Below are positions 19,420 to 23,784 of a stretch of 64,000 nt of DNA, one piece after another. The translations under genes and the position numbers were made by a program. Source of the DNA: a virus (Duplodnaviria > Caudoviricetes). Below the pieces are notes generated by a model. It saw only the letters and a program-made list of their open reading frames with translations, was not told where the DNA came from and did no database searches. The DNA lies in the IMG/VR virus record IMGVR_UViG_3300011774_000001, positions 128,001-192,000 of that record. One strand, written 5' to 3'. How positions within the stretch are numbered: position 1 is the first letter of the stretch; the number at the start of each line of letters is the position of its first letter.

Positions 19420-20085
19420 ATGGGCGAAGTAGTAGAAATTCGTAAAGGCGTATTGGAGATTCAGAACCGACACGCTCCTGGCAAACTGCGCGGCTTCTAC
19501 CGTGCGCTTTGTAAAAGTCATCAGGCCGCTGGCCGTGGTGGTTGGTCGTCTGCGAATATGCTGACGGCAGCCATCATCAAACAAATGCTGGACCACGGCA
19601 ACAAGCTGTGGTGGGACTTGGTCGATCTTGAGTTTGGATCGCTCACTTCCCCAGATAGTTCCAAGGATGAAATTGGCATCCGTACCCTGGCGGGTGAAAC
19701 CTTCAATGGTGTCCCTAGTCAACCGTTCATAATCGCCATGGCGGTTACCCACCAGAACGGCATTCGCCAAGAGATTCACGAGTGCTTCCAGAGCATCACA
19801 CCGGCTGAGGTCAATGCTCGGGTAGCAGAGATGCTGTCTGATCGTGACTTCCCAACAGGTGGTCTGGACCCGATGATGCTGCGTGTGGGGGATGCCATTG
19901 CCATGACTAATCTCAAAGTCGAGTCTGTTCTCGACAAACACAGCCACATCAAGCTGAACCTGCAAGACCCGAATGAGGAAGGACATTTCACTTCCTACAC
20001 GGTGTACATTTATCCCGATACCCTGCGCAAGGATATCGATCTCATCAAAGCTTCTCTCGCTACCCAGGAAGGAAAAAAGCAATGA
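19420..20085 (+). CDS. hypothetical protein
   Basis: GGAG SD. Confidence 0.75.
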   Translation: MGEVVEIRKGVLEIQNRHAPGKLRGFYRALCKSHQAAGRGGWSSANMLTAAIIKQMLDHGNKLWWDLVDLEFGSLTSPDSSKDEIGIRTLAGETFNGVPSQPFIIAMAVTHQNGIRQEIHECFQSITPAEVNARVAEMLSDRDFPTGGLDPMMLRVGDAIAMTNLKVESVLDKHSHIKLNLQDPNEEGHFTSYTVYIYPDTLRKDIDLIKASLATQEGKKQ

Positions 20086-20363
20086 GCGTCTCTGTCAATC
20101 AACTGCAGGCTGAAATCCGTGAAGTGGAGGGCGTCGATGTTGTCGTCCATTCGGCTAAGCCTGGTGAGATGTTTCCTTCCTACAAAGAGCAGTGGCACAA
20201 AGGTCTGAGCAACGAGCGCACCCTGTCGGCATTCAAGCGTCGACTGGAGCACTGTCTGCGCGGTCATAGCTACGGCATCAACAAATCCGATGGCAACAAA
20301 ACGCAAGGCGCTGGCAACATCTACATGGGCACCATTCGTGGTGTCGAAGTAGCGAAGGCATAA
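20082..20363 (+). CDS. small hypothetical protein, paralogue of 29119..29415
   Basis: VxxLxxEIxxxEGVxVxxH motif. Confidence 0.75.
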   Translation: MSVSVNQLQAEIREVEGVDVVVHSAKPGEMFPSYKEQWHKGLSNERTLSAFKRRLEHCLRGHSYGINKSDGNKTQGAGNIYMGTIRGVEVAKA

Positions 20364-22422: not shown

Positions 22423-23520
22423 GTGAATCAATACGAATATCTTCAGCTCATGCTGGGGGCCAAGTATCAGTTGGAGAAGGACGATCTTCTACTGATCACG
22501 GCAATCGCAACGGTTCTGCGTGGTCGCAACATTGAGGTGACCTTTGCGTCGGCTCCATTGTTCGGTCAACTGAACGGTGAAGAAGGGCACAGTGAACGCC
22601 ACCAGCTTTACAAGGTGGTGACTCAGGGCATGGCGTACTGGGAACTGACTCAGGCGCTGGGCGGTGTGGACAACAAGTATCGCGCTGCCAGCTACCTGCG
22701 TGAGATCATGAACGGTCGTGGCGGTACCCCAAGCATCCGTAAGGTTGCCATGGTGCTGGTTAGCGAGTGGGAAGTGCCTGCTCCTCCACCTGTGTCTGCA
22801 GAAGACATGGCCGGCACTGACCGTCAGGATGAAGCTCGTCCTGCACACGATGGCTGGCTTGCCACTGGCAAGTACAAGGTTGAAGGCGAGGAAGGTGAAA
22901 AGACCTACGACCTGGACGCCAAGAACGGCGAAGACGGCGAGCCTGCCGTGGTCACCATCGCTCGTCTGATTCGTGCGTCGTGGGACCCTGTGCTCAATCA
23001 GGTTGATCCTGTCCGTCTGGAAAAGGTCAGCCTCATGTTGGGTCATGTTCTGATGGGTGAGCGTCAGCAAATGATCGCTCAGCTGGAAGAAGCGAAGAAA
23101 GCGGCCAAGCCAGAACCGGTCAGCATCTGGCCGAAGAACAAAGAACACTGGATCTTCGATGCGCGTTACTCGGCCCTGCAAGCGCCGTGGGCTCTGAACA
23201 AAGACTACCCTTGCCGTCAGGCGATCGAAGACGTTGTTCGTAGCGCAGCACGCTTTGCGGTGTCTCGTGCCAGTGGCATGGGTAACAGTCGTGTGTTCAA
23301 CATTGAAGGCTTTGTCGAAAACGTTGTCCTCGGCCTGTTTGGCGATGGTACCAACGAAAAAGACTTCGACTTCAGCAAACTGGTGTTCCGTGAAAAGACA
23401 CCAGCAGCGGAGGCGGCAGGTACCACCATCCACTTTGAAGCACCGCTGGAAGCAGCCGCCACGCCGGCACCTGCTGCAGAACCTGCAGGGGGCGAAAGCG
23501 AGGCTGAAGTGGGAAAGTAA
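22423..23520 (+). CDS. hypothetical protein, short (non-frameshifted) form
   Basis: 365 aa; ends G-GGA-AAG-TAA. Confidence 0.8.
   Translation: MNQYEYLQLMLGAKYQLEKDDLLLITAIATVLRGRNIEVTFASAPLFGQLNGEEGHSERHQLYKVVTQGMAYWELTQALGGVDNKYRAASYLREIMNGRGGTPSIRKVAMVLVSEWEVPAPPPVSAEDMAGTDRQDEARPAHDGWLATGKYKVEGEEGEKTYDLDAKNGEDGEPAVVTIARLIRASWDPVLNQVDPVRLEKVSLMLGHVLMGERQQMIAQLEEAKKAAKPEPVSIWPKNKEHWIFDARYSALQAPWALNKDYPCRQAIEDVVRSAARFAVSRASGMGNSRVFNIEGFVENVVLGLFGDGTNEKDFDFSKLVFREKTPAAEAAGTTIHFEAPLEAAATPAPAAEPAGGESEAEVGK
23511..23517 (+). promoter_or_regulatory. -1 ribosomal frameshift slippery heptamer GGGAAAG
   Basis: In-phase G GGA AAG immediately before the stop; -1 frame open for 75 codons with no start of its own. 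Confidence 0.75.
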
Positions 23521-23744
23521 GTGCTGAGGTAGCCAGTAAGGTATCTGCAGCATCCAACTTCCCTCAGGCTCCAGTAGAAACAGCAGAAGAAACCATTCTG
23601 CCAGTCAGTGAACGTGGGGCACCTGCCAGTACGCCATTGATTGAAAAGCTGCAAGCCCAAAAGACTGCGGCTAAACCCGTAGCCAAGAAGCCAGCAGCAA
23701 AACCTGCAGCAAAATCGCGCACCGCGCGCAAACCTACCAAGTAA
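23517..23744 (+). CDS. -1 frame extension (75 aa, Ala/Lys/Pro-rich with KPAA repeats) of the 22423 protein
   Basis: VSAEVASKV...TAAKPVAKKPAAKPAAKSRTARKPTK*; exactly fills the gap up to the terminator. Confidence 0.7.
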   Translation, partial: VSAEVASKVSAASNFPQAPVETAEETILPVSERGAPASTPLIEKLQAQKTAAKPVAKKPAAKPAAKSRTARKPTK

Positions 23745-23751
23745 CACATCT

Positions 23752-23784
23752 GGCTCACTCCCGGTCGGGGGTGGGCCTTATGCC
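23752..23784 (+). terminator. hairpin terminator with TTATGCC tail
   Basis: GGCTCACTCCC-GGTC-GGGGGTGGGCC-TTATGCC. Confidence 0.8.

Follow-up and report, generated by a model that had tools for sequence, protein, structure and literature searches.

Where the protein encoded by one gene of an uncultured tailed phage ends is the question addressed here. The gene is the open reading frame (ORF) at 22423..23520 (+) of a 64,000-nt stretch of DNA (the window), which covers positions 128,001 to 192,000 of the IMG/VR record IMGVR_UViG_3300011774_000001 (Duplodnaviria, Caudoviricetes; 230,984 bp in total). As annotated, the ORF encodes 365 aa from a GTG start and ends EVGK-TAA. An earlier interpretation made from the letters of the window (the sequence-only reading) had proposed that ribosomes slip by -1 at a GGGAAAG heptamer directly ahead of this stop and thereby append a basic, histone-like tail to a protein that has no role in tail assembly. 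The locus very probably undergoes programmed -1 ribosomal frameshifting on G GGA AAG, and this core proposal is supported by conservation of the site, by selection on the -1 frame, and by homology of the appended tail to other proteins.

The gene end and the -1 frame

The 3' end of the ORF reads GAG GCT GAA GTG GGA AAG TAA. The heptamer (23511..23517, +) has the X XXY YYZ form and is in phase: (23511-22423) mod 3 = 2, so that the heptamer starts on the third base of a codon and the zero frame reads it as G GGA AAG. The zero-frame stop TAA (23518..23520, +) abuts the heptamer, and a TGA in the -1 frame (23505..23507, +) is located two codons ahead of it. Because these two stops bound the overlap, the -1 frame can be entered only at 23508-23520. 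Read from 23508, it gives SGKVSAEVASK...KPVAKKPAAKPAAKSRTARKPTK and is closed by the TAA at 23742-23744. The extension counted from the heptamer (23511..23744, +) comprises 77 codons (GKVSAEV...RKPTK) plus this TAA, and the trans-frame product has a predicted length of 440 aa. Inside the extension is a linear motif, ILPVSERGAPASTPLIEKLQ (23595..23654, +), which is near-identical in the two related sequences L002 and L004 described below, with most of the base changes being synonymous, and the end of the extension is a basic stretch rich in K, P, and A, KTAAKPVAKKPAAKPAAKSRTARKPTK (23661..23741, +). The -1 frame of the extension contains no ATG or GTG, and its sole TTG is at 23637. Everything that the sequence-only reading had stated about the letters themselves (the ORF end, the in-phase heptamer, the upstream TGA, the lack of an ATG, and the -1 stop) was verified.

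The two remaining frames of the extension region contain 4 and 5 stops. With 75 long ORFs from the same genome as the training set, the codon-usage score was +0.23 for the -1 frame vs -0.62 and -0.68 for the other frames, with +0.62 for the body of the gene. The tail favours codons ending in A or T, for example GCA, AAA, and CCA. Stop-codon readthrough was considered as another route past the annotated end and was rejected, as the zero frame meets a TAG three codons past the TAA.

Conservation and selection in related phages

DNA-level comparison was made with L002, an IMG/VR genome of 231,724 bp, and L004, a 7-kb metagenome contig, which are from independent sources and both belong to the lineage of the protein P0004. 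Over the gene, the two are 96% identical to each other, and each has 60% protein identity to the window. The gene end in both reads GCT GAA GTG GGA AAG TAG, with the heptamer in phase (at 5065 in L002 and 4065 in L004). The window, L002, and L004 each have a stop directly against the heptamer, TAG in L002 and L004 vs TAA in the window, its position unchanged, and the -1-frame TGA two codons upstream is likewise common to the three. In the nucleotide alignment, a 17-nt island, GCTGAAGTGGGAAAGTA, which includes this TGA, is identical in the window, L002, and L004; identity is low in the DNA flanking it, and the lengths of the indels there (42, 6, and 12 nt) are each divisible by three. L002 and L004 have an open -1 frame of 82 codons (GKVEAGVAPQLASK...LPVSERGAPASTPLIERLQSQKTAAKPVAKKPAAKPRQPRKPADKKPTK), and its length differences from the window extension are likewise divisible by three. 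The proteins P0003 (93% identity; a further assembly, found on 5 contigs) and P0004 (60%) both end EVGK. The sequence-only reading had suggested looking for the heptamer and the open -1 frame in related phages; both were found at 60% identity, in L002 and L004.

The same comparison bears on whether the frame change originates in the ribosome. A homopolymer error, which can occur in metagenome assemblies, could produce such a frame change artificially, and slippage of the phage RNA polymerase at GGGAAA could produce it during transcription; for the latter, it can be noted that chimallin-encoding phages have unusual multisubunit RNA polymerases, of which subunits are found in the window, and whose slippage has been little studied. 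The runs of three G and three A are, as far as is generally known, far shorter than known slippage runs. Assembly error is excluded because at least three independent assemblies (window, L002, and L004) have the same frame structure; the P0003 protein ends alike, and an error conserved in this way is not credible. An origin of the frame change in transcription or assembly is thus considered extremely improbable.

Substitutions between the window and L002 were analysed using the Nei-Gojobori method, with nonsynonymous (dN) and synonymous (dS) rates compared as dN/dS. The body gave dN 0.32 and dS 1.16 (ratio 0.28), the whole -1 extension dN 0.26 and dS 0.88 (ratio 0.30), and the 42-codon core of the extension dN 0.056 and dS 0.505 (ratio 0.11). 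These values indicate that the -1 frame is under purifying selection, with protein-level constraint at least equal to that of the body.

They also bear on the idea that the tail is a decaying remnant, cut off by an ancestral 1-nt indel, with the 365-aa form the only product and the heptamer a coincidence. A basic end is missing from two family members, P0005 and P0017, so that the tail may be dispensable, and a heptamer with an open -1 frame is not rare by chance in one genome. A dead tail would, however, be expected to collect stops, as the other two frames did (4-5 each), yet the extension is open in both lineages although identity in the body has fallen to 60% (dS about 1.1). It has accepted in-frame indels only, its dN/dS is that given above, and the heptamer sits in an identical island amid variable DNA. 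Decay of the tail therefore appears very unlikely, and a programmed frameshift is retained as the explanation.

Origin of the tail

All known members of the protein family to which the gene belongs come from contigs of uncultured phages (up to ~232 kb). The -1 peptide matched the C-terminus of one member, P0005 (435 aa, with a body 38% identical to that of the window protein), at residues 353-388 with 49% identity over 43 aa (E 4e-8). This tail match is located directly behind the shared body end and is encoded in the same frame as the body; the in-frame counterpart of the motif ILPVSERGAPASTPLIEKLQ is VLPVEERGAPATTDLIKDLQ. The conceptual trans-frame products are colinear with the whole family, having a linker, a small LP..(E)RG motif, and a basic end, and the C-termini of several relatives are KPTTK or QPTAK, cf. 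KPTK in the window extension. Among the 14 family members outside the clade ending in EVGK, 12 have in-frame last 30 residues that are net positive and rich in K, P, and A, for instance P0011 (...APAKKPAPVKPAAKPAAKAATKK); the members without a basic end are P0005 and P0017. As annotated, the products of the window, P0003, and P0004 have charges of -5, -4, and -3 over their last 30 residues, vs +10 for the trans-frame product of the window, whose last 30 residues are rich in the same three amino acids.

In a maximum-likelihood tree, which was rooted at the midpoint only and in which three long branches were flagged, the three EVGK-stop proteins formed one clade (support 100/99), grouped (94/96) with P0005, P0006, P0007, and P0010, whose tails are all in frame. 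On these comparisons, the tail is an old part of the protein family that is mostly encoded in frame, and the simplest history would be a single change from an in-frame tail to a frameshift-dependent one. Because the tail of the EVGK clade is in the -1 frame, it would be used there only via frameshifting. The direction of change is unusually clear: most of the family encode the tail in frame, and a single nested clade would need frameshifting to make it. The locus would offer a natural example of a recoding site arising on a linker that already joined a folded body to a disordered tail. The proposal that the -1 frame appends a basic tail to a non-tail protein is also borne out at this level, the tail being homologous to C-termini that distant relatives encode in frame. 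The 75-codon extension escapes gene callers, and the database copies of the clade's protein (P0002, P0003, and P0004) all stop at EVGK, without the conserved tail.

The in-frame homologues also help to decide whether the -1-frame ORF could be a separate small gene, expressed as an unfused basic peptide of ~35-75 aa via TTG or another non-canonical start, or by reinitiation after the TAA. Initiation at the TTG at 23637 would give a 35-aa basic peptide, this codon is also TTG in L002 (at 5203), and the two coding parts overlap by the heptamer only. The codon reads CTG in L004 (a synonymous Leu codon), however, and no Shine-Dalgarno (SD) sequence was seen ahead of the TTG in the window, nor is there a start codon near the TAA for reinitiation. 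Upstream of the TTG, the -1 frame is conserved and stop-free for 42 codons in the window, L002, and L004, and P0005 has homologous in-frame sequence for this stretch, the LPVSERGAP motif included. In the relatives, the tail is covalently part of the protein. An independent peptide gene is accordingly judged highly improbable compared with an extension of the ORF by frameshifting.

Slippage and its weight against chance

Under a programmed frameshift, most ribosomes would read GTG GGA AAG and stop at the TAA, giving the acidic 365-aa protein. A fraction would slip by -1 on G GGA AAG, with the peptidyl tRNA-Gly moving from GGA to GGG and tRNA-Lys from AAG to AAA; alternatively, with the stop codon waiting in the A site, the P-site tRNA-Lys might be the only one to slip. 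The slipped ribosomes would add 75 codons to give the 440-aa protein, and the junction, ...SEAEVGK-VSAEVASK..., would be identical under tandem or single-tRNA slippage. Such an arrangement would permit a tail-less form alongside the tailed one, or a low level of the tailed form. We infer from this arrangement that both isoforms may exist, and that their ratio may be fixed, as the sequence-only reading had supposed. The junction peptide that it suggested for mass spectrometry, EVGKVSAEVASK, is cleaved by trypsin after GK; VSAEVASK or any tail peptide would be diagnostic instead.

The candidate stimulators of slippage are the abutting stop and a downstream hairpin. A stop adjoining the slippery site is a known frameshift stimulator in Escherichia coli, and the TAA at 23518..23520 would be a "shifty stop" of this kind. 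The candidate stimulatory hairpin of the window (23521..23553, +), a weakly supported feature, begins 3 nt past the heptamer, and that of L002, of -23.6 kcal/mol and z -1.9, begins 4 nt past it and is unrelated in sequence to the window's. An Rfam search gave no match at a family's gathering score, the two sub-threshold matches being chance matches on the opposite strand. A GAGG at 23500-23503 was considered as an SD-like stimulator and rejected, as it is absent in L002.

Several observations weigh against a programmed frameshift. The window hairpin (-13.7 kcal/mol) does not stand out from shuffled sequences (z -0.14), both hairpins begin nearer to the heptamer than the usual 5-9 nt, and the failure of the SD-like candidate counts in the same direction. 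The codon-usage score of the extension is weaker than that of the body, and its G+C content at third codon positions (GC3) is 0.41 (23520-23741) vs 0.60 in the body (22423-23517). Conservation at the DNA level rests on two diverged lineages only, P0003 having been compared as protein, and the window and L002 differ in the basic end itself. A heptamer and an open -1 frame by themselves are within chance. GGGAAAG occurs 2 times on the + strand of the 64-kb window. When the last 50 codons of ORFs of at least 100 aa were scanned across the whole record, 50 in-phase XXXYYYZ heptamers were found near ORF ends, 12 of them with a -1 extension of at least 74 codons. Several of the other 11 long-extension cases were short ORFs overlapping longer ones or read into long downstream frames.

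In L002, the GC3 is likewise 0.40 in the extension and 0.62 in the body. The genome scan also recovered other ORF ends with in-phase CCCTTTA or TTTTTTC and long open -1 frames, e.g., at 87978-88964 (+), 199648-201288 (+), and 163763-164101 (+) of the whole genome; in some of these, the -1 frame may simply enter the next gene.

Comparison with the relatives raises the GGGAAAG site well above chance. Another heptamer in the window, A AAA AAG at 20073-20079, served as a control for heptamer conservation. It is located one codon ahead of the stop of the ORF at 19420..20085, and its -1 frame enters the ORF at 20082..20363. As a second candidate frameshift it was rejected, the heptamer being replaced in L002 (GGA ACG AAG) and in a further relative, L003 (GGA ACC AAG); though dnaX-like in look, it is an ordinary ATGA gene overlap.

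The end of the gene unit

Beyond the extension stop, at a distance of 8 nt, is an 11-bp G+C-rich hairpin (23752..23777, +; -24.1 kcal/mol, z -2.9) followed by CTTATGCC, without a T run. The hairpin is also present in L002 and L003, where both arms of the stem have changed. Because this conserved hairpin lies beyond the extension stop, the gene unit seems to end after the extension and not at the zero-frame stop. The sequence-only reading had placed a terminator here; the strong hairpin is present, but the T run is not, and a simple terminator scan of the + strand did not flag it. G+C-rich hairpins with stems of 9-12 bp, followed by CTTATGC(C), recur across the 231-kb genome, mostly between genes, with copies in the window at 23752-23784, 15483, 31264 (-), 35584, and 47943, and many more elsewhere in the genome. 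The combination looks like the phage's own terminator, or a terminator-promoter punctuation, that works without a T run.

A side observation concerns the same signal. The 96% identity of L004 to L002 extends across the gene and the terminal hairpin and breaks off abruptly at GGGCCTTATGCCAT (from about 4330; 5330 in L002 and 23790 in the window), after which L004 has a different downstream gene, so that a mosaic junction falls exactly at the hairpin-CTTATGCC signal.

Composition and possible role of the tail

The long form would carry the conserved LPVSERGAP...LIEKLQ motif together with the basic end, in which the units KPVA, KKPAA, and KPAA make 2-3 KPxA units in 27 residues. By its composition, the tail could be a disordered arm that binds a polyanion (DNA, RNA, or polyphosphate), a possibility that we hold tentatively. 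AlgP, with 25 KPAA repeats, binds DNA and associates with polyphosphate granules (PMC9239181). PhaF has 9-22 KPAA repeats, and the repeat region of P. aeruginosa PhaF binds RNA (PMC12818456). Like the KPAA domains of AlgP and PhaF and the C-terminal tail of histone H1, the phage tail is rich in Lys, Pro, and Ala, strongly basic, C-terminal, and predicted to be disordered. Unlike AlgP (25) and PhaF (9-22), it has no long tandem KPAA array, and with them it has only composition in common, not alignable homology. Of the description as a histone-like, DNA-binding tail, the basic K/P/A-rich composition therefore stands, while the kinship with KPAA-repeat proteins reduces to an analogy; DNA binding is a reasonable guess by that analogy.

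A narrower possibility is a stoichiometry device peculiar to nucleus-forming phages, in which a major tail-less isoform is accompanied by a minor tailed isoform that is sent to another place or partner (such as the phage DNA or RNA enclosed by the chimallin shell, the import machinery, or the capsid) via the LPVSERGAP motif and the basic end. This is a speculative proposal and is considered unlikely. If true, one clade-specific gene would serve two compartments, while its ancestor made the tailed form only. The gene is in any case a simple handle on the function of the basic tail, through comparison of the short and long forms with each other and with a forced in-frame fusion.

Protein body and genomic setting

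The window encodes chimallin (PF25677, E 1e-46), a divergent family B DNA polymerase, RNA polymerase subunits, an NAD-dependent ligase, and thymidylate synthase. The phage is a chimallin-encoding and presumably nucleus-forming jumbo phage. It is only distantly related to cultured phages, with at most 27% identity between its chimallin and theirs. No tRNA genes were found in the genome. As the sequence-only reading had held, the gene is outside a tail-chaperone context: it is located in a replication and nucleus-shell region without a tail module, and neither homology to a tail-assembly-chaperone family nor a position between tail tube and tape-measure genes was found.

The 365-aa protein has a net charge of -14. 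Its AlphaFold2 (AF2) model has a predicted local distance difference test score (pLDDT) of 72.7 and a predicted template modelling score (pTM) of 0.35, with a folded body at residues ~1-322. The linker at 323-365, just ahead of the slip site, is acidic, rich in Pro, Ala, and Glu, and predicted to be disordered (pLDDT below 50). Searches against Pfam and PHROGs gave no match for the body, the extension, the gene neighbours, or any of the 17 family members. Fold searches, using Foldseek against PDB and BFVD and a wide VIA-align run, gave nothing above noise, the best hit (Z 4.9) covering a helical hairpin only; a profile search of PDB sequences returned 0 matches, and the ESM Atlas gave no usable match. 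No match was found for the gene or its 426-aa neighbour by blastn or tblastn among 50,697 phage records. A single-protein scan of IMG/VR also gave nothing. Alignment-based scans yielded L002 and L003, then L004 and L005 only. In four cultured chimallin-encoding phages (FLC9, LucasX, RSF1, and Noxifer), a profile search gave only a marginal match of a C-terminal subdomain, to the hypothetical protein gp235 of LucasX (L012, 2368-2973).

Residues ~236-310 (window 23128-23352) form a domain of ~75 residues that is common to many short uncharacterised proteins (P0018-P0028). Its pattern is KDHW(I/L)(F/Y)...AA(R/K)(F/Y)A..RA(S/T)..G...(F/N)..(E/D), with a longer consensus of LPLPKDHWLY...R...AARYAVR.AT.NG..FDPDA.VQN...GLLGY. 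The domain is duplicated in one protein (P0018) and located behind a weak MazG-like region in another (P0022), and no Pfam family covers it.

Comparison with known frameshift systems

The mechanism and the heptamer are classical, being those of lambda G/GT. The -1 frameshift of lambda gpG/gpGT was reportedly described by Levin, Hendrix, and Casjens in 1993 and by Xu, Hendrix, and Duda in 2004. As in lambda, an identical G GGA AAG is located near the end of the upstream ORF, a short and a C-terminally extended form would come from one mRNA, and the extension has no start of its own. The differences are that the protein described here is not a tail chaperone and its gene is found among those for thymidylate synthase, DNA ligase, DNA polymerase, and chimallin; that the zero-frame stop abuts the heptamer; and that the extension is a predicted disordered basic tail instead of a domain that binds the tape measure. 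Lambda gpG/gpGT was used as a test set in PMC10885494.

A second comparison is the tau/gamma frameshift of E. coli dnaX (Blinkowa and Walker 1990, as cited in PMC10885494). In both cases, a -1 slip would occur at an X XXY YYZ heptamer ending in AAG and give two isoforms that differ at the C-terminus, their ratio being set by the slip in dnaX. The dnaX slip shortens the protein, whereas the slip proposed here would lengthen it. The drivers in dnaX are an SD-like element upstream of the site and a strong stem-loop; at the present site, no SD-like element was found to be conserved and no structure to be clearly significant.

Frameshifts in phage genes other than tail chaperones are documented, e.g., in capsid genes (PMC10885494), and include that of the major head protein gp5A/5B of Lactobacillus phage A2 (Garcia et al. 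2004, as cited in PMC10885494). In the literature, no paper was found that connects a frameshift of this type with chimalliviruses or phiKZ. As for T7 gene 10A/10B and A2 gp5A/5B, a -1 slip near the zero-frame stop would here give a minor, C-terminally extended isoform. Those two are experimentally proven capsid proteins of cultured phages, whereas the protein of the present locus is uncharacterised, known from sequence, and found in a non-structural context. The list of frameshifted phage genes would thereby gain a non-structural, clade-specific gene of chimallin-encoding jumbo phages, and one that differs from T7 10A/10B and A2 gp5A/5B also in having relatives that encode the extension in frame.

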